A stretch of 22,302 nt of DNA from a virus: the UHGV virus genome UHGV-1135478; one strand, written 5' to 3'. A program made the position numbers and the translations under genes. Shown piece after piece: positions 1,151 to 18,650 of the stretch. How positions within the stretch are numbered: position 1 is the stretch's first letter; each line of letters begins with the position of its first letter. The notes beneath the pieces are model-generated. The model did not search any database, had not been told where the DNA came from, and saw only the letters and a program-made list of their open reading frames with translations.

Positions 1151-9166
<8,016 letters not shown>

Positions 9167-10385: not shown

Positions 10386-12905
10386 ATGGCAGATTACAAA
10401 TTGAGTGAATTAAACTCAATCGATACAATCCGTTCAGACGACCTTCTTCATGTCAGGGTTAAAAAGAGACCTGAAATGCTGGGTGATGAAGACCGTCGAA
10501 TGACCTATCAAGACTTCTTAGCATCTTTTAAGCTTGAAAGATTTGTTCAGATTGCTGGTAGTACTATGACTGGTGACTTAGGGATTGTTAAGTTACTTTA
10601 TGGTGGTAAGGCAGTCTTTGACCCTACAGGCTCTTCTGAGATTACTATGGGGGATATTTTAAAGACTTTTAAAATTAACGCAAATGGTCTTAAATTAACT
10701 ATTGCAGATGCTTCAAGGTCAGCAACTGTTTATCATACTCTGAATAAGCCAAGTCCTAATGAGCTTGGTATGAGAACTAATGAAGAGAATGACGCAAGAT
10801 ATGCAAGACTTGCTGTTACAAACACATTCTCTGGGACTCAGAACATTCAAGGTGATGTTAACTTACTTCGCCTTAGAAACCAAAATGCAAATAATGCACA
10901 ATATATTGAAGGTGTAGACCTAGATGGCTCGGCTAGATGGTTGGTTGGTATTAGCAAAAATGGTTCTGATGCAGTGCAGTTGTACAATAACAAATATGAC
11001 TCAGCTTTGACTATTGCAAGCAATATCTCTGTGAATAAGTCTCTAGCAATCACTGGTCAAGTACAACCTTCTGACTTCTCTAACTTAGATGCTAGATACT
11101 TTACTCAGACAGCAGCTAATCAGAGATTTGCACAGTTAGCTGTTAATAACACTTTTACAGGTGCTAATACTTTCACTAACCTTGTTGTTAAGAAGAATGC
11201 TAATGCTATTACTTTGCAGAATACTGATGCAGGTACAGCACTTTATATTCTTGGTAAGAAGTCTGATGGAACAAATAAATGGTATGTTGGTACAGATTCT
11301 GATGAGACACGTCTGAATATTTATAACTACATTACAGGTTCACAGGTTTCACTAGGTACTACTGTTGGTATTAATAAAACCTTGCAAATCAATGGTCAAG
11401 TTCAACCATCTGATTGGACTAACATTGACTCTAGATATATTCCGGCAGCAACATTAAGTACAATTGCAAGAACTAATACTCTCAATACATTTTCTGTACG
11501 ACAAGTTATCAACTCTGATGGTGAAGCTCTTGCGTTAAAAGCAAAAACTGAAACGACATTGTTCATTAGGGGGTGGGCTGCTGATGGGACAGCTAAGTGG
11601 TATGTTGGTAATGGTGATGCCGATAACAATAATAACTTAAGGCTGTTTAACTACAAAACAGGTAAAGTGCTTACCATTGGCTCAACATTCGAAATGAATG
11701 CAACTTTAGCAATCACTGGGCAGGTTCAACCTTCAGATTGGTCTAACATTGATGCGAGATACTACAACAAATCATCTGCTGATAACAGATATCTGAGAGT
11801 AAGAAGCACAGATTTCAATACTAGTGGTGCTGGTAAATGGGCTAAGATTGCAACTGTGAATATGCCACAAGGCGCATCAACAGCAGTGATTGAACTGTTT
11901 GGTGGGGCTGGATTTAACTTTGGCCTAATTGACCAAGCCTGTAAGACAGAAATTGTTCTTAGGACAGGGGATGGTAACCCAAAAGGCTTAAATGTTGTTG
12001 CATGGAAAAACTCACCGAATAGTGTTGTAAGTAGAATTGGGTATGTTAATACCTCTGGTGATAACTATGACATTTATTGCGCAGTTGGTAACTATCTAGC
12101 CGCTACAACAGCTAGGGTTCAGTCAACATCTAATGCAACAGTACAACTGTTTGAGGCTCCAGAGACATCTGACAACGCTCCATCTGGCTATGTTGATGGG
12201 ACAATTGCTCACTATTACACTAGTCTCTTGAAGCCAACACCTTCAGATATTGGTGCATATACTAAATCAGAAACTGACCAGAAGATTGCACAGGCAATTA
12301 GTGACTCTACAGACCTTAATAAAATCTATCCAGTAGGTATTGTAACGTGGTTTAACAGTAATGTTAACCCTAATACCGCACTTCCTGGATTAACTTGGAC
12401 GTACCTGAACAATGGTGTAGGTAGGACAATCAGGGTTGCAGCAGCTAATGGTTCAGATGTTGCTACAACTGGAGGCTCAGATTCTGTTACGTTAGCAGTT
12501 GGAAACTTACCTTCACACACTCATAGTTTCTCTGCGACAACCTCTAGCTTTGACTACGGTACTAAAACCACTAACACTACTGGTGCTCACACCCACTCAG
12601 TGAGTGGTTCTACTAACAACACTGGTGCTCATACACATACAGTTGGTGGTCATTATGGTGGTGACTCTATCGGTGGTAAACCTCGTGTTCAGGTATTTGG
12701 TACAGAACAGGTATCTAGCTCTGCTGGTGCTCACGCTCACACTGTATCTGGTACTGCTGCCTCTAACGGAAACCATGCTCACACTGTTGGTATTGGTGCT
12801 CACAGTCATACAGTTAGTGGTAACACTGGTGGTACAGGTTCTGGTTCAGCATTTAGTGTAACTAACCAGTTCTATAAGCTGATGGCTTGGGTAAGAACTG
12901 CTTAA
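10386..12905 (+). CDS. Long tail fibre protein (internal domain repeats; collar-like + His-x-His C-terminus)
   Basis: 839 aa; RBS AGAGGA. Three to four ~110-aa internal repeats, each ending …GQVQPSD(F/W)(S/T)N(L/I)D(A/S)RY. C-terminal ~190 aa homologous to fibre 1 (…GNLPSHTHS…GAHTHSVSGSTNNTGAHTHTVGGHYGGDSIGGK…). Confidence 0.85.
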   Translation: MADYKLSELNSIDTIRSDDLLHVRVKKRPEMLGDEDRRMTYQDFLASFKLERFVQIAGSTMTGDLGIVKLLYGGKAVFDPTGSSEITMGDILKTFKINANGLKLTIADASRSATVYHTLNKPSPNELGMRTNEENDARYARLAVTNTFSGTQNIQGDVNLLRLRNQNANNAQYIEGVDLDGSARWLVGISKNGSDAVQLYNNKYDSALTIASNISVNKSLAITGQVQPSDFSNLDARYFTQTAANQRFAQLAVNNTFTGANTFTNLVVKKNANAITLQNTDAGTALYILGKKSDGTNKWYVGTDSDETRLNIYNYITGSQVSLGTTVGINKTLQINGQVQPSDWTNIDSRYIPAATLSTIARTNTLNTFSVRQVINSDGEALALKAKTETTLFIRGWAADGTAKWYVGNGDADNNNNLRLFNYKTGKVLTIGSTFEMNATLAITGQVQPSDWSNIDARYYNKSSADNRYLRVRSTDFNTSGAGKWAKIATVNMPQGASTAVIELFGGAGFNFGLIDQACKTEIVLRTGDGNPKGLNVVAWKNSPNSVVSRIGYVNTSGDNYDIYCAVGNYLAATTARVQSTSNATVQLFEAPETSDNAPSGYVDGTIAHYYTSLLKPTPSDIGAYTKSETDQKIAQAISDSTDLNKIYPVGIVTWFNSNVNPNTALPGLTWTYLNNGVGRTIRVAAANGSDVATTGGSDSVTLAVGNLPSHTHSFSATTSSFDYGTKTTNTTGAHTHSVSGSTNNTGAHTHTVGGHYGGDSIGGKPRVQVFGTEQVSSSAGAHAHTVSGTAASNGNHAHTVGIGAHSHTVSGNTGGTGSGSAFSVTNQFYKLMAWVRTA
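10773..11795 (+). repeat. Tandem ~330-nt intragenic domain repeats in the long fibre gene
   Basis: GQVQPSD motif recurs at codons 224, 337 and 445 (nt ~11055, ~11394, ~11718) with flanking KWYVG / LAVxNTF motifs; copies are diverged at nt level. Confidence 0.6.
12546..12719 (+). repeat. Direct repeat copy 2 (shared tail-fibre C-terminal module)
   Basis: Counterpart of 9916-10089; see that entry. Confidence 0.8.
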
Positions 12906-12912
12906 TCCCTTA

Positions 12913-12941
12913 TTGACTGATTGTTAAGATGGTGTTAATAT
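12913..12941 (+). promoter_or_regulatory. Sigma70-like promoter (TTGACT-N17-TAATAT)
   Basis: -35 TTGACT at 12913-12918, 17-nt spacer, -10 TAATAT at 12936-12941; 8 nt after the long-fibre stop and ~44 nt before ATG 12985. Confidence 0.55.
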
Positions 12942-12966
12942 TCTTTATGGGTATTCTCACCATCTT
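12926..12966. repeat. Perfect 9-bp inverted repeat bracketing the promoter -10 and start region (operator-like)
   Basis: AAGATGGTG (12926-12934) and CACCATCTT (12958-12966), 23-nt spacer; no T tract follows, so not a canonical terminator. Confidence 0.5.
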
Positions 12967-12984
12967 GGCTGATGAGGTGATTAA

Positions 12985-13179
12985 ATGCCTACAATCCTAG
13001 CAATTCTCCTAAAAAATCTAGGTAGCTTCTTCTGGAAACTCATTTTATCCCTTCTAAGTGAATACATGATTGAGAAAGTGTTCTTTAAGCTTGCAAGATA
13101 CCTTGCGGGTAAGACAGACACACCTATTGATGATGAGTTCGTAGATAACTTAGAAAAAGCTTTTAAGGGGGAGAAATAA
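12985..13179 (+). CDS. Small membrane-associated protein (holin-like or exclusion-type; function unknown)
   Basis: 64 aa; hydrophobic N-terminal half (ILAILLKNLGSFFWKLILSLL) and charged C-terminus; RBS GAGGTG 5 nt before ATG. Confidence 0.5.
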   Translation: MPTILAILLKNLGSFFWKLILSLLSEYMIEKVFFKLARYLAGKTDTPIDDEFVDNLEKAFKGEK

Positions 13180-13545
13180 ATGAAGTGGCTAGAGGAAGCT
13201 TTTAAAAATAATATTGGTGCAATTGTTGTTGGTATTTTTAGTGTTATTGGGATGTATACCACGATGCAAGTTTCAAGTGGTAAGCAAGAAGTGTCTGTCA
13301 CAACAAAGTTACAGCAGCTAGATAATTATTCCAGAAGTAACTATTCAGCTATTCGTGATTTACAGTCTGACATGAGACTGATTCAGCTAGGGATGGAGAA
13401 CCAGAAAGTTCAGTTAGAGAATGTTAAGGGTGAAAACGCAAAACTTACCAGAACCCTTGATAAATTCTCTGACAGTGTAAATAATCTGGCTCAATCAGTA
13501 TCAGCCCTCCAAGCTATTACTGAGAAGAACACAAAAGAACACTGA
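13180..13545 (+). CDS. Membrane-anchored coiled-coil protein (i-spanin-like topology; function unknown)
   Basis: 121 aa; one N-terminal transmembrane segment (IGAIVVGIFSVIGMYTTM) then a heptad-like polar/charged region; RBS GGGGGAG; start overlaps preceding stop (TAAATG). Confidence 0.5.
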   Translation: MKWLEEAFKNNIGAIVVGIFSVIGMYTTMQVSSGKQEVSVTTKLQQLDNYSRSNYSAIRDLQSDMRLIQLGMENQKVQLENVKGENAKLTRTLDKFSDSVNNLAQSVSALQAITEKNTKEH

Positions 13546-13557
13546 AAATAAAATTTT

Positions 13558-13581
13558 AAGGCTCCTTTTTACGGGAGCCTT
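13558..13581. terminator. Bidirectional intrinsic terminator at the convergent junction
   Basis: AAGGCTCC (13558-13565) pairs with GGAGCCTT (13574-13581), loop TTTTTACG; T-rich 3' on the + strand and U-rich on the - strand; between stop 13545 (+) and stop 13588 (-). Confidence 0.65.
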
Positions 13582-13587
13582 TTTGTT

Positions 13588-14487
13588 TTACTTACCTACT
13601 GACAAAGGTGCTTCAATCTTCCCTGCGTGTTTGTAGTTGTTAATACCACCAATAAAATCACTCGCAGTAAGGTGTTTTAGGTCACTTAGCGTGTTAAGTG
13701 GTAGACCAATCTCAAAAGTTGGTGCATGGAACTCTTCATTATTCATCAATTCATAAACCTGCTTCATATGGTTCTGATAAATCTGAGTATCCCCAAAGAC
13801 ACCTATCAAGTATCGTGGAGTGTACCCAGTCATCTTGCAAAGTACTTCCAGAATAAAACCATAAGATGCAATGTTAAACGGAAGTCCTAAAAAGGTGTCT
13901 ACAGAACGTTGATACCATTGTAAGTCAACTTCACCCTCGTTAGTGATATAAATCTGAAACAGAACATGACAAGGTGCTAAAGCCATCGAGTTGGATGCAA
14001 TATCTGCTGCATTCCAAGCATTAACAAGCATGTAGCGGTCTGTGATATCACCTTTCATCTTCGTTACTAAGGTCTCTAACTGGTCTACAACACAACCATT
14101 ATGACCTTCAAAGTTTCTCCACTGAACCCCGTAGATTCTCCCACCTGCATCTTCTAACCAATCTTGTTCAGAAGAATAATTAGAGCTTAACCAGCGTTTA
14201 AAATCATCTGACCAGATAGTCCAGCGTTCTCCATCATTTTCACCCCAAGTACGGTAACGGAGTTCACCAAGTTTATTCTCACCGTTCAGGAACCATAAAG
14301 CTTCCCCAATAACTTGCCGTGTAAACACCTGTTTAGATGTTAAGAGTGGGAAACCAGTACGCATATCAAAACGAAATTGTGGTGGAGCGAATGCAGAGAT
14401 AACATCTCCAGTTCGTGCAGTACGCAGTTCACCAACGGATAAAACATGGTTCAGGATATTTTTGTAACTTGAATCTGCTTGTGACAT
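13588..14487 (-). CDS. thyA: Thymidylate synthase
   Basis: Active-site region …PCHVLFQIYI…QWYQRSVDTFLGLPFNIASYGFILEVLCKMTGY…GDTQIYQNHM… matches the ThyA signature. Start set to ATG 14485-14487 (MSQADSS…) just downstream of the DHFR stop, rather than the upstream alternative start in the ORF track. Confidence 0.9.
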   Translation of the reverse strand: MSQADSSYKNILNHVLSVGELRTARTGDVISAFAPPQFRFDMRTGFPLLTSKQVFTRQVIGEALWFLNGENKLGELRYRTWGENDGERWTIWSDDFKRWLSSNYSSEQDWLEDAGGRIYGVQWRNFEGHNGCVVDQLETLVTKMKGDITDRYMLVNAWNAADIASNSMALAPCHVLFQIYITNEGEVDLQWYQRSVDTFLGLPFNIASYGFILEVLCKMTGYTPRYLIGVFGDTQIYQNHMKQVYELMNNEEFHAPTFEIGLPLNTLSDLKHLTASDFIGGINNYKHAGKIEAPLSVGK

Positions 14488-14488
14488 A

Positions 14489-15034
14489 TCAAAAGTGTCC
14501 TTTTGCTTGTGGAACATAAATTTCAAAGGTTGCTTTACCATCTACTGATGGTTTTGACTGAATCTTAGCGAAAATTTGACGGTCATGCAACTTATCAAAG
14601 AAATTCTCAAAAGGCAGATGCACAGTTGCCTCTTCAGTCACTTCATGGAAAACTGTACGGAAGACTACATCAGCATACGGTAAAGCACTGACAAGAATAA
14701 CTGCACCACCAATTACGAAGACGTCTTCTTCAATATTACTATCAAGATACTTTAAAAATGCTCCAAAAGAATCTTGATGAGCCTTAGCAAACATAACATC
14801 ATCTTTGGTGAAGTCCATACCATAATAAGGCACAGAATTTGTTAAGATGAGGTTTGTACGTTCTGGTAAAGGTTTACTACCCAGAGTCTTAAAAGTTTCA
14901 TTACCCATGACTACTAAGTTGTCTTTAGTGAGTCTCTTAAACTCTTGCATATCCTGTTTATGTTGAGGCCACGGCATACCAGTTGGAGTACCAAACTCCC
15001 CATTTTCACCACTTGCAAAGATTAATTTAATCAT
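14489..15034 (-). CDS. folA: Dihydrofolate reductase
   Basis: 181 aa with DHFR hallmarks (MIKLIFASGENGEFG…GMPWP…VVMGNETFKTLG…VFVIGGAVI…); RBS AAGGA; immediately upstream of thyA as in T4 frd-td. Confidence 0.85.
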   Translation of the reverse strand: MIKLIFASGENGEFGTPTGMPWPQHKQDMQEFKRLTKDNLVVMGNETFKTLGSKPLPERTNLILTNSVPYYGMDFTKDDVMFAKAHQDSFGAFLKYLDSNIEEDVFVIGGAVILVSALPYADVVFRTVFHEVTEEATVHLPFENFFDKLHDRQIFAKIQSKPSVDGKATFEIYVPQAKGHF

Positions 15035-16687: not shown

Positions 16688-17071
16688 TCAAATACCTGTG
16701 CAGCTTCTGTTTTCTAAGAAATACTCAACACCATACATAGCTTTTTGCATCAAATCTTCTTTAAACTGGATACGATGGTTGCGCATAGCCTGTACATCAA
16801 TATCATCATGGTGCTTCTCTTTAATATTTGCAGATTGCAGGAAATACTCTCCAAGAACGCGATACTGATAGTCAGTTACCTTATCAGTCATCTCTGTTAA
16901 AGACTCTTCAGAGATTGGTTTCAGTAGCTCACCATTAGCTAGAGCAAGACCTTTAACAATCTGGCAAGTGTCTTCTGGAACACCTGATAAGTCCACATTT
17001 GGAAGTTCTGTTGCATTGACTGGTAAATTCATTGCCATAACCATTGCAGCAGCTAATAAAATCTTTTTCAT
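16688..17071 (-). CDS. Secreted/periplasmic protein with cleavable signal peptide (function unknown)
   Basis: N-terminus MKKILLAAAMVMAMNLPVNA then TELP…; two Cys in mature part; RBS GAGGT 5 nt before ATG; first gene downstream of the tandem promoters. Confidence 0.65.
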   Translation of the reverse strand: MKKILLAAAMVMAMNLPVNATELPNVDLSGVPEDTCQIVKGLALANGELLKPISEESLTEMTDKVTDYQYRVLGEYFLQSANIKEKHHDDIDVQAMRNHRIQFKEDLMQKAMYGVEYFLENRSCTGI

Positions 17072-17115: not shown

Positions 17116-17144
17116 AAAATAAGCTATAACACCTGACTTGTCAA
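17116..17144 (-). promoter_or_regulatory. Sigma70-like promoter P2 (TTGACA-N17-TATTTT)
   Basis: - strand -35 TTGACA at 17139-17144; -10 TATTTT at 17116-17121; ~45 nt upstream of ATG 17071. Confidence 0.45.
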
Positions 17145-17161
17145 CAGATTTTATAGCTTAT
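17119..17161. repeat. Perfect 11-bp inverted repeat centred on the P2 -35 (operator-like, or weak AU-rich terminator)
   Basis: ATAAGCTATAA (17119-17129) and TTATAGCTTAT (17151-17161), 21-nt spacer containing the -35 TTGACA; on the - strand RNA the hairpin is followed by UUUUUAUAC. Confidence 0.5.
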
Positions 17162-17318
17162 TTGGCAGATTTTTTATAAGGCTACTGCCATCCTTCCATA
17201 CCAGACTACGCCATGCCAGACCAGACTTCACATCACCTTACCGTGCAATACATCGCTTAAAACCCTCTTAGAAGACTCTTAAGTGATGCTGGTGAGTACC
17301 CGTTGGTTCATGCTGCTC

Positions 17319-17346
17319 AGTATACTCACCAAATTTTCTATGTCAA
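17319..17346 (-). promoter_or_regulatory. Sigma70-like promoter P1 (TTGACA-N16-TATACT)
   Basis: - strand -35 TTGACA at 17341-17346, 8 nt after the ligase stop; 16-nt spacer; -10 TATACT at 17319-17324. Confidence 0.55.
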
Positions 17347-17353
17347 CAACTTT

Positions 17354-18457
17354 TTATTCGTAATCTCGAATAACTAGCCCAACAGGGAACTGTAAAGACC
17401 CCTTACGAGTCATCTTCTGGAACTGAACCGTCAAAGGTTTCCCGATAAACTCTTCAGGATGCTCAGCAAGATACTGTTTCTTCTCATGAGTAGTTTTCCA
17501 TGAGACATCTACAAAGACGTTAGGAAGAGTCTCTACAACGAACTTGCCATGACCACGTTTATCGGTCTTTACACCAGTCACTTTAAACTCTTCAGTGTGC
17601 ATCTTCTTGTGCTTAATCAAGAAGTAGGAACGGTGACCACACTCGTAGAAAGATTCTTCAGAGATTGAGCGGTACATTGCACCTTCAAACTTAGCTTCAA
17701 CCCACTTATCATGAGCTTCATCAAACTCTTCCCAAGAATTTACACGACGAGACTTAACAGGAACAACTTTACAGCCGTCTCTAAAGTCATTCAATGGTGA
17801 AGTCTCAATAATATCTCTACGCTCAGGCCACGTCTTAGTACTGTCACAGATATCATACCAGTAAAACTTGAGTAGATGTCGGTCAGGATTGTCTTCATTT
17901 TTAATCATGGAGACAATATCTTCTAAGTCCAACCCATGAGCATAGATTTCACCATCAAATTCATCAACATCTTTATGGAGCCTCAACATTGCCATAATGT
18001 CAGGTATTAGCTCAGTAGGAATTTTATAAATAGTGTTCTCACGAGAATATGCTGTAAATACACTGCCAATACTTAAGTGTCTTGAAATTCTACAACGGAC
18101 ACCATCAAGTTTTGGTTGAGCATCAGCAGGGAACTTCAGATACTTTGCATGGCTAACCTTTGCAGCATCATGAGCAAGCTGTACACCTACCTTCTCAGTA
18201 TTCTGTGCAGACTCTTTTGTGTAAGCGTAACCTTTACGGTCTACTTGTTTCTTGTACTTAGCAGAAACTTCAAAGAGAGCTTGCTGTTCAGCGTTACGCT
18301 CATTCTTTTTACCGATGTTCTTAGGCTCTGCTGTGTACTCTTCAAACATCATCTTGCCATTTTCTTTACCGTAGGTTGTGATAACTTTGTCACCTACAGC
18401 AACGCATGACCAGACGTTGAAGGAACCATCTTTATTTTGTTTGTATAGGATTGTCAT
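17354..18457 (-). CDS. ATP-dependent DNA ligase
   Basis: Nucleotidyltransferase motifs: KLDGVRC (motif I), DGEIYAHG (III), EGAMYRS (IV), LIKHKK (V). Start set to ATG 18455-18457 (MTILYK…) with RBS GAGGT 6 nt upstream; the ORF-track start 18493 lacks an RBS but is possible. Confidence 0.85.
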   Translation of the reverse strand: MTILYKQNKDGSFNVWSCVAVGDKVITTYGKENGKMMFEEYTAEPKNIGKKNERNAEQQALFEVSAKYKKQVDRKGYAYTKESAQNTEKVGVQLAHDAAKVSHAKYLKFPADAQPKLDGVRCRISRHLSIGSVFTAYSRENTIYKIPTELIPDIMAMLRLHKDVDEFDGEIYAHGLDLEDIVSMIKNEDNPDRHLLKFYWYDICDSTKTWPERRDIIETSPLNDFRDGCKVVPVKSRRVNSWEEFDEAHDKWVEAKFEGAMYRSISEESFYECGHRSYFLIKHKKMHTEEFKVTGVKTDKRGHGKFVVETLPNVFVDVSWKTTHEKKQYLAEHPEEFIGKPLTVQFQKMTRKGSLQFPVGLVIRDYE

Positions 18458-18650
18458 TTTTAACCTCTGAGTGATACCAAGTATTGCAAGCATTACATGC
18501 GTAAAGCTCTAAGTCATTTTTATCTGGTTTATGGAAACAGTTTGACCCACAACGACACCGGAATAGCTTACCATCAACACGAAGAATGAATTTTTCAAGC
18601 TCACCATCTTCTGTAAGAACTGCGTTCTTAAATTTATCTTCTACAGTCAT
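18432..18650 (-). CDS. Small Cys-rich zinc-finger-like protein (hypothetical)
   Basis: 72 aa with CRCGSNC…CNAC; ATGA start/stop overlap with the upstream gene. Confidence 0.55.
   Translation of the reverse strand: MTVEDKFKNAVLTEDGELEKFILRVDGKLFRCRCGSNCFHKPDKNDLELYACNACNTWYHSEVKNDNPIQTK

Follow-up and report, generated by a model that had tools for sequence, protein, structure and literature searches.

A conserved two-gene cassette behind the tail fibres of a Felix O1-type phage: a candidate lysis module with a PM2 P18-type protein

The phage genome UHGV-1135478 was analysed as a single stretch of 22,302 nucleotides, called the window here, and all positions are counted along its one strand from 5' to 3'. 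Directly behind the distal tail-fibre gene lie two small genes that encode proteins of 64 and 121 residues. A preliminary description had read them as a moron-like membrane cassette with its own promoter, operator-like palindrome and terminator, serving in lysis or exclusion, and had suggested a holin/i-spanin pair. The locus raises the question of what these two proteins do, whether the pair is foreign to the genome, and how its expression is set.

The 64-residue protein is, by its sequence, a member of the PM2 P18/gp l family. The cassette is probably a lysis module with a P18-type effector, situated as the last transcription unit of the structural block of the Ounavirinae. The evidence consists of family membership, synteny, predicted folds, conservation of the promoter and the knockdown phenotype of an orthologue. 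From these we infer an outer-membrane target, the topology of the proteins, a role for the second gene and an RNA switch. These inferences leave the basic picture unchanged, in which the genes themselves are ordinary, conserved and catalogued.

The first gene and the P18 family

The 64-residue protein matches PHROG 402 (E = 4.8e-22), as does PM2 gp l itself (ORF l, 51 residues; E = 8e-14), and proteins 89-98% identical to it carry a precomputed PF26925 (Phage_PM2_Gpl) assignment. Upon aligning a profile of eight diverse family members with PM2 gp l in hhalign, a probability of 92.7% was obtained (E = 4e-7, 43 columns). This agrees with the earlier report of Krupovic and Bamford (2007) of P18 homologues in PaP3, Felix O1, RB49 and three cyanophages (PMC1950889). 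In PM2, P17 has been described as a holin and P18 as the protein needed for disruption of the outer membrane (PMC9502842, PMC6356626).

Proteins of the family are 51-85 residues long, with at least 210 clusters of 61-85 residues, and share the pattern E..(M/L)I...FF.........T.T..DD. The 64-residue protein lies within the 50-80 residues typical of the family. Its predicted model is all-helical, with helices at residues 2-23, 26-43 and 47-63 and a mean predicted local distance difference test (pLDDT) score of 82, and it has neither a signal peptide nor a lipobox. No cysteine is present in this protein or in the 121-residue protein. Nine lysines and arginines are balanced by nine acidic residues, leaving no net charge, and the C-terminal third is acidic. 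The hydrophobic segment at residues 3-21 has a Kyte-Doolittle score of 1.56, near the transmembrane threshold, and contains two conserved lysines, so that the term "hydrophobic/amphipathic" used previously fits it well. No solved structure or functional name was found among its relatives, and a viral fold search with the model returned uncharacterised family members only.

The surroundings of P18-family genes were surveyed in contigs of about 36-43 kb, mostly metagenomic, and in what appears to be a prophage on a chromosomal contig of Shewanella baltica. In these the gene adjoins or closely follows an endolysin gene, which is of the Phage_lysozyme type in L015/16, L019, L022 and L007, of the Peptidase_M15_4 type in L017/18 and of the Amidase_3 type in L021. 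No other independent argument for a role of the family in lysis is as strong as this adjacency to three unrelated endolysin types. In RB49, the P18-like gene is situated between the distal fibre gene gp37 and the gene of the T holin. The family extends over hundreds of phage lineages, is often the sole small hydrophobic protein beside the endolysin, and is labelled "hypothetical" nearly everywhere.

Seven phages were named in 2007 as carrying P18 or its homologues, and five of them (PM2, PaP3, P-SSM2, P-SSM4 and S-PM2) are on the list of phages without a recognisable spanin compiled by Kongari et al. (2018); the exceptions are Felix O1 and RB49. This overlap fits P18 as an alternative disruptor of the outer membrane.

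The SUSP1 orthologue of the 64-residue protein, agp027, was among 19 "Fit" genes (2.27; 0.00069) in a published CRISPRi-ART screen of that phage. With a single guide, the titre fell only from 1-2e10 to 5e9, whereas plaque areas, among the rows listed in the source, fell from about 350-1260 to about 52-112 units; the plaques were thus about 10-fold smaller at a near-normal titre. Such a phenotype is compatible with an outer-membrane role in lysis but is non-specific, and blocking agp027 may also lower the translation of agp028, the overlapping gene for the orthologue of the 121-residue protein. The general guess of a lysis function made in the preliminary description is supported.

The position of the gene would also suit a function in tail assembly, in which the small protein helps to fold or attach the fibre encoded upstream. 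In all Ounavirinae the gene comes right after that of the distal fibre, as it does in RB49, where it takes the slot of T4 gp38, and it lies within the tail modules of phages 7-11, LAh_6 and Ss1. Small plaques with a near-normal titre fit a partial assembly defect, and the SUSP1 neighbours agp023 and agp024 were "Fit" as well. However, the family adjoins the three unrelated endolysin types in phages that have no fibre gene beside it, and PM2, in which lysis mutants defined the family, has no tail. Neither protein of the pair was detected in Felix O1 virions. Both SUSP1 fibre genes were "Not Fit", showing that the screen missed fibre-linked effects and gives false negatives. A fibre-assembly role is, on this evidence, quite unlikely.

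The second gene and the holin, spanin and exclusion readings

The 121-residue protein has one uncharged hydrophobic segment at residues 11-30, with a Kyte-Doolittle score of 1.62 that is near the transmembrane threshold. The membrane helix, which a short N-terminus precedes, is placed at about residues 12-29, corresponding to nucleotides 13213-13266. In the predicted model (mean pLDDT 71), a helix at residues 2-31 is followed by a short break and then by a continuous helix of about 85 residues, from 36 to 120. The protein ends in TEKNTKEH. The single N-terminal transmembrane segment and the coiled-coil-like tail ascribed to it earlier are in keeping with these predictions. The architecture is that of an i-spanin, and an N-in orientation is suggested by the RRK-rich N-terminus of a relative, P0250.

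A search of 1.84 billion representative proteins yielded only three real clusters, which indicates that the family is confined to this phage group. The three clusters share the architecture and the C-terminal motif L(D/E)K(F/L)(S/T)(D/E)S(V/I)N.L. In the Ounavirinae lineages examined, the gene always directly follows that of the 64-residue protein. The protein belongs to PHROG 4038 and to no Rz-like PHROG. It has no Pfam family, the holin families included, and shows no similarity to PM2 P17 or to the RB49 T holin. A PDB sequence search gave generic coiled coils and a weak match to haemolysin E (E ~0.006), treated as compositional, and a PDB fold search gave nothing.

As in holins, the protein is small, has at least one transmembrane helix and has a charged C-terminus. 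Felix O1 gp79 was included by Whichard et al. among five holin candidates, by topology alone (PMC3185647). The Meda authors identified no holin. The protein is a "putative holin" in the Moogle and Michonne records, and the "Holin" names in UniRef are propagated annotation; a weak match to PHROG 1296, "holin" (E = 0.006), was found for the phiEa21-4 orthologue only. For the 121-residue protein, "holin" is an annotation only. The same annotation centre gave this name to ORF79 in Moogle and Michonne and to a different gene in Mushroom (gene 87, L004 16949-17506). The Mushroom protein was described as T4-like; it is a DUF7338 (PF24027) protein and not a member of Phage_holin_T. Annotators disagree in this way over the holin of Felix O1, which finds use in diagnostics and biocontrol, and to our knowledge that holin has never been identified.

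An overlapped, Rz-like spanin pair has been described near rIIB in genomes related to Felix O1 (PMC6139136), and the true i-spanin, PHROG 1152, is located elsewhere than the cassette in these genomes. When the 121-residue protein was compared with the Felix-type i-spanin in hhalign, the probability was 0.1%. No ATG-started ORF with a lipobox is found in or beside its gene. An alternative-frame ORF at 13214-13321 (+ strand, 35 codons, TTG/GTG starts) encodes LVQLLLVFLVLLGC..., with a lipobox-like sequence followed by three cysteines. Felix O1 shares this ORF with the window. Stop codons interrupt it in Bas63 and Moogle, and phiEa21-4 and the metagenomic lineage L023 lack it. It was ruled out as an embedded o-spanin in the style of lambda Rz1 for want of conservation in these four relatives, and is best regarded as a by-product of the T-rich codons of the membrane helix. 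Since there is no conserved lipoprotein ORF and no cysteine, the 121-residue protein is not a spanin subunit by the usual definition. The earlier remark that neither an endolysin gene nor a lipoprotein o-spanin gene is adjacent is correct, there being no conserved lipoprotein ORF in or beside the second gene.

It was proposed at the outset that the pair consists of a holin and an i-spanin; in this reading the 64-residue protein would be the holin and the 121-residue protein either i-spanin-like or a second holin component. The predicted N-terminal membrane helix and periplasmic helix of the second protein are indeed i-spanin-like. In L019, L021 and L022 the endolysins have no hydrophobic stretch in their first 50 residues, and the P18-like protein is the sole hydrophobic one among the translated neighbours. 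The "Fit" score of agp027 was shared by the T5 holin in the same study. Nevertheless, the hydrophobic stretch of the 64-residue protein, with its low score and its two conserved lysines, is poorly suited to a holin, and PM2 gp l is said to have no transmembrane domain at all, which likewise counts against this reading. The P18 family is not a recognised holin family, and P18 is assigned to the outer membrane (PMC9502842, PMC6356626). For the second protein there is no homology to the Felix-type i-spanin, T or P17, no cysteine and no o-spanin, the 13214-13321 candidate not being conserved, and the genuine spanin pair is encoded elsewhere. A holin/i-spanin pair is therefore unlikely. Within the lysis-module reading that is preferred here, the 121-residue protein might itself be the holin, although this is doubtful; it would somewhat more likely be a dispensable, membrane-anchored partner or regulator of the first gene.

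The two proteins could alternatively form an early membrane pair for superinfection exclusion or for protection of the envelope of the infected cell. The promoter described below is conserved and of host type, and the gene of the 121-residue orthologue can be spared in single infection, which is the rule for exclusion genes. In the published reverse transcription polymerase chain reaction (RT-PCR) series for Felix O1, ORF79 peaks at 5 min, a crude early signal, ORF78 at 25 min, and the fibre ORFs 76 and 77 at 60 min. However, small plaques upon knockdown of agp027 are unexpected for an exclusion gene, and both the P18 homology and the endolysin genes found beside the family elsewhere speak for lysis. 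The timing in the RT-PCR table is not reliable, because capsid genes are also put at 5 min there. A defence-system library gave no match for the 64-residue protein and, for the 121-residue protein, one weak partial match to DruC (E = 0.0043, 13.6 bits) that is not meaningful; the NCBI family libraries gave nothing meaningful for either. An exclusion function appears very unlikely.

The control region and the setting of the cassette

The anatomy given in the preliminary description proved accurate throughout: the promoter-like site, the palindrome, the two small ORFs that follow the long-fibre stop and the bidirectional terminator at which they end were each found in place (Table 1).

Table 1. 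Features of the cassette and its borders in the 22,302-nt window
Feature	Position	Strand	Remarks
Fibre ORF	10386-12905	+	Stop codon TAA at 12903-12905
Outer stem, 5' strand (predicted)	12903-12915	+	Fibre stop UAA and UCCCUUAUUG; CCUU at 12908-12911 is the predicted anti-Shine-Dalgarno sequence
Sigma-70-type extended -10 promoter (predicted)	12913-12941	+	-35 TTGACT 12913-12918; TGT 12933-12935; -10 TAATAT 12936-12941
Inner hairpin (predicted)	12923-12969	+	Contains the 9-bp repeat and an apical stem, 12937-12943/12949-12955; overlaps the -10 element and the predicted start
Outer stem, 3' strand (predicted)	12970-12983	+	Holds the Shine-Dalgarno sequence GAGG (12974-12977) of the 64-residue protein gene
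Gene of the 64-residue protein	12985-13179	+	Felix O1 ORF78; PM2 P18/gp l family
Ribosome-binding site of the second gene, GGGGAG	13168-13173	+	Within the end of the first gene; direct sequence reading
Gene of the 121-residue protein	13180-13545	+	Felix O1 ORF79; PHROG 4038
Bidirectional intrinsic terminator	13558-13590		Hairpin 13558-13581; T-runs on both strands
Thymidylate synthase (td) gene, convergent	13588-14541	-	Terminator common to both directions

The promoter, 8 nt past the fibre stop, has a 17-nt spacer and a TG at 12933-12934 (extended -10), agrees with 9 of 12 consensus positions, and has its predicted start near 12947-12949. A match of this quality means little by itself, because 9/12 matches are common in such A+T-rich DNA: the scan found 8 sites in 2.6 kb, where 5.9 were expected, and 62 in 20 kb, where 52.6 were expected. 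The stricter pattern TTGAC[AT]-N13-15-TGnTAnnnT occurs only once in the window, both strands having been scanned. There are eight matches to it in 326 kb, three of which are the sites in the window, in phiEa21-4 (TTGACA...TGCTACCTT) and in L023 (TTGACA...TGTTAAATT). In Bas63, Moogle, phiEa21-4 and L023 the pattern lies 9-12 nt past the first base of the upstream stop codon, with differing spacers. Of 23 distinct upstream regions taken from viral contigs, 21 contain it. It was not found upstream of the pair in a fifth lineage, L054. Comparative support for the promoter thus comes from a position that is kept in four of five lineages.

The perfect 9-bp inverted repeat, AAGATGGTG at 12926-12934 and CACCATCTT at 12958-12966, was confirmed; it extends to 15 nt with 87% complementarity. 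The RNA from 12906 to 12990 folds with -29.2 kcal/mol (z = -5.1). None of 200 shuffled sequences folds as well, and a hairpin of this stability lies far outside what chance would give. For the RNA reaching from the fibre stop to the start codon of the first gene, the minimum-free-energy fold has -32.7 kcal/mol and pairs 12903-12915 with 12970-12983. The z-scores across four lineages are -5.1, -5.2, -3.5 to -3.7 and -6.05. The ribosome-binding site of the first gene is paired in the predicted folds of all five lineages examined, and the outer pairing is also predicted in Moogle, phiEa21-4, L023 and L054. The sequence of the inner hairpin is completely different in phiEa21-4, L023 and L054, and no alignment of this hairpin across the lineages is possible. 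Beside an invariant CC:GG core, one base pair is C:G, A:U or G:U, depending on the lineage.

The repeat, earlier called an operator-like palindrome, is wholly replaced in Kolesnikvirus and in other lineages, which nevertheless keep the RNA fold and the pairing of the ribosome-binding site. It is better read as part of a conserved RNA fold, as these predictions indicate, than as an operator. The operator idea was also considered from the frequency of the repeat, and was set aside: the 9-mer is over-represented yet never recurs as a palindrome, there being no second palindromic copy on either strand of the window. With at most one mismatch, AAGATGGTG occurs 16 times on the two strands of the window, where 6.3 occurrences are expected, a count not attained in any of 100 shuffles. 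Except for the 12926/12958 pair the copies are single and lie mostly in coding regions, so that codon or peptide bias may explain them.

In read-through RNA, the predicted probability that the Shine-Dalgarno sequence of the first gene is unpaired is 0.00 in the window and 0.03, 0.06 and 0.39 in the other three lineages. In promoter-initiated RNA the corresponding values are 0.36 in the window and 0.44, 0.93 and 0.56, so that accessibility is predicted to be higher in the promoter-initiated RNA in four of the four lineages tested. By prediction, the region therefore has a hairpin that masks the ribosome-binding site and contains a promoter, as in T4 genes e, soc and 49. A conserved promoter within such a fold was not found described for these phages; it is possibly a new part of the picture, a lead rather than a result, and would make a tidy case of dosage control of a lysis gene.

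The inner hairpin of the window is not an intrinsic terminator, as no U-run follows it. Terminator-like hairpins, rich in G+C and followed by a U-run, do occur between the preceding structural gene and the P18-like gene in L011 (Kolesnikvirus; 3225-3255), L023 (3939-3971) and L054 (about 1232-1262). In phiEa21-4 and L023 the hairpin is downstream of the promoter-like site, and the order of promoter, terminator and gene suggests attenuation, as far as sequence can indicate.

The stop codon TAA of the first gene (13177-13179) abuts the ATG of the second at 13180, and in Bas63 and SUSP1 the two orthologous genes overlap by 4 nt. The abutting codons, together with a ribosome-binding site inside the end of the first gene, suggest translational coupling. 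The terminator is identical in sequence to Felix O1 t79/t80, listed in Table 2 of Whichard et al., in whose map the rightward operon consists of Felix O1 genes 41-79 (PMC3185647).

Over 1.5 kb around the pair, the DNA has 100% identity with that of Salmonella phages ST11, FG1m and FM4b, and 97.9% with that of Felix O1. By DNA similarity it matches 255 phage records, nearly all of Felixounavirus and its relatives. The two genes are Felix O1 ORF78 (Felix01p146) and ORF79 (Felix01p148), with counterparts in Bas63 (genes 28/29), Mushroom (57/56), Moogle (55/54), phiEa21-4 (gp73/gp74) and SUSP1 (agp027/agp028). Two tail-fibre genes precede the pair, and the genes for thymidylate synthase and dihydrofolate reductase follow on the opposite strand. 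The same slot, from the last fibre or structural gene through the pair to the convergent td gene, is occupied in Felixounavirus, Mooglevirus, Kolesnikvirus and SUSP1 (Suspvirus-type), and, by protein similarity, in the two diverged metagenomic lineages L023 and L054, where the first protein of L023 is 57% and the second protein of L054 is 24% identical to that of the window. Every Ounavirinae lineage that was examined has the pair in synteny. Its G+C content of 0.365 falls in the range of the flanks (0.365-0.445).

By comparison of these genomes, the pair is made up of conserved core genes of Felix O1-type phages and is not a foreign insert. A moron would be a recently acquired, self-contained accessory cassette, and the promoter-like site and the terminator do suit such an element. 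However, the pair holds the same position throughout, from the 255 records found by DNA to the distant lineages found by protein, its base composition resembles that of the flanks, and the phage is virulent. The terminator, moreover, merely closes the whole rightward operon and is common to the convergent td gene. The term "moron" is hardly tenable.

Several observations concern the surroundings and the records. The longest ORF of thymidylate synthase (317 residues; 13588-14541, - strand) overlaps the end of the dihydrofolate reductase ORF (14489-15034). In Felix O1, Mushroom and Bas63 a thymidylate synthase of 299 residues is annotated from a later start, and the start codon differs among records. 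Two strong sigma-70-type matches on the - strand, TTGACA-N16-TATACT (11/12) at 17346-17319 and TTGACA-N17-TATTTT at 17144-17116, lie in the interval 17116-17346, between ORFs 17354-18493 and 16688-17071. This is the largest intergenic gap of the leftward operon for replication and nucleotide metabolism, and the two sites are likely early promoters, as judged from their sequence. Felix O1-type sequence of 95-97% identity is also found under the labels Campylobacter phage A126 and Staphylococcus hyicus and Phocaeicola plebeius assemblies, and a Staphylococcus-labelled phage record matches as well. An 87-kb record named Listeria phage LPML1 has a P18-like gene of 50% identity. Records with such off-host labels are probably mislabelled or contaminated.

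The proposed mechanism and its relation to known systems

In the lysis-module reading, RNA that reads through from the fibre gene would be silent for the cassette, the sequence after the fibre stop pairing with the ribosome-binding site of the first gene. RNA begun at the host-type extended -10 promoter, which lies inside the fold, would be made without the masking strand. The stem could also be opened by a ribosome that finishes translation of the fibre gene, because the masking strand includes the fibre stop codon. Translation of the 121-residue protein would be coupled to that of the first gene, and both genes would end at the bidirectional terminator. The 121-residue protein would reside in the inner membrane, probably N-in/C-out, with its helix of about 85 residues, probably a coiled coil, in the periplasm. 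By analogy with PM2, the 64-residue protein would reach the envelope once the inner membrane and the cell wall had been breached, and would help to break the outer membrane.

A number of observations weigh against this reading. The window has no endolysin gene next to the pair, the endolysin gene being tens of kilobases away in related genomes, and the sole lysis-like neighbour of the first gene is the unproven "putative holin" that follows it. In phages 7-11, LAh_6 and Ss1 the P18-like gene is surrounded by tail genes, and no lysis gene was seen nearby. Felix O1-type genomes already have an Rz-like spanin pair elsewhere, which makes a further outer-membrane factor seem redundant. The SUSP1 screen classed agp028 as "Not Fit" (0.20; 0.60), whereas the holin genes of T4 (t) and T5 were picked up in that study; the outcome leans against a holin role of the second protein, although the screen has false negatives. 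The DUF7338 gene, agp134, the orthologue of the gene named holin in Mushroom, was "Semi-Fit". In SUSP1, agp027 was "Fit" and both spanin genes, agp086 and agp087, were "Not Fit", an effect stronger than would be expected of a mere accessory factor. A sigma-70 promoter active early is odd for a lysis gene; the RT-PCR timing, unreliable as it is, is given little weight. Finally, the promoter-initiated RNA of the window is still predicted to mask the start codon (unpaired probability 0.01), with the ribosome-binding site only 0.36 open. Output may therefore be low in either case, which would suit a potentially lethal membrane protein if the predicted folds apply.

Some of these points can be turned around. 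The P18-like gene matters in SUSP1 and the spanins do not, and five P18-carrying phages have no recognisable spanin. These are hints that the P18-type protein with its anchored neighbour could be the main envelope-breaching device of Felix O1-type phages and not a back-up to the spanins; this stronger version is held to be rather unlikely. If true, it would establish a widespread lysis effector that is independent of spanins and lipoproteins and whose translation is set by the point at which the transcript starts. The genes, the terminator, the P18 homology in Felix O1 and the candidacy of gp79 as a holin are already in print or in database records. A connection between the P18 family, the small plaques of SUSP1 and the list of spanin-less phages was not found described and is a lead, not a result. 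It does provide a concrete, testable candidate for breakage of the outer membrane without spanins.

Among the closest known systems is P17/P18 of PM2 (Krupovic et al. 2007). There too, the gene is at the end of the late structural operon, and the adjacent gene, for P17 in PM2 and for the 121-residue protein here, encodes a small protein that combines a single membrane helix at its N-terminus with an amphipathic helix at its C-terminus. The order of the two genes is reversed in PM2, and the 121-residue protein is more than twice as long as P17 and has no detectable homology to it. Two features of the tailed-phage homologues are missing from PM2 P18: a hydrophobic helix of about 15 residues added at the N-terminus, and a strict T-x-T-x-x-D-D motif. 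The genomes of Felix O1-type phages also carry genes for an endolysin and for spanins, whereas PM2 is on the Kongari list of phages without a recognisable spanin. In RB49 (Krischvirus), as here, the P18-family gene follows the distal fibre gene and precedes the gene of a protein with a single membrane helix and N-in/C-out topology. That partner, however, is a true member of Phage_holin_T (E = 4.5e-61), to which the 121-residue protein is unrelated, and it has a globular periplasmic domain in place of the long helix.

Two-component spanins, such as lambda Rz/Rz1 and those of the Felix O1 family "JH2" in Kongari et al. (2018), resemble the cassette in the size and architecture of the i-spanin and in the step concerned, the breaking of the outer membrane, which is the role proposed here. 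The 121-residue protein differs from them in having no conserved lipoprotein partner, no homology to Rz and no periplasmic cysteine, and it is predicted to form one unbroken helix where spanins have two coiled-coil segments with a linker. The 64-residue protein may also be compared with the phiKT gp28 "disruptin", reportedly a cationic amphipathic peptide that replaces spanins. Both are small, amphipathic helical proteins made in the cytoplasm without a signal sequence, and the proposed target of both is the outer membrane, in the final step of lysis. Whereas the disruptin is said to be cationic, the 64-residue protein has no net charge, and no sequence relation between them was found as far as tested.

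The control region has its counterpart in T4 genes e, soc and 49, in which a promoter lies inside a hairpin that hides the ribosome-binding site, and the locally started RNA is the only translatable form. Here, too, the promoter is predicted to lie within a fold in which the 5' strand covers the ribosome-binding site, so that only the local RNA would be free of the mask. In T4 the internal promoter is late and the masked RNA is early; in the window the predicted internal promoter is of the host sigma-70 type, and it is the late transcript of the fibre gene that would be masked. A further difference from T4 is that the masking strand includes the upstream stop codon, so that the ribosome finishing the fibre protein could itself open the stem.

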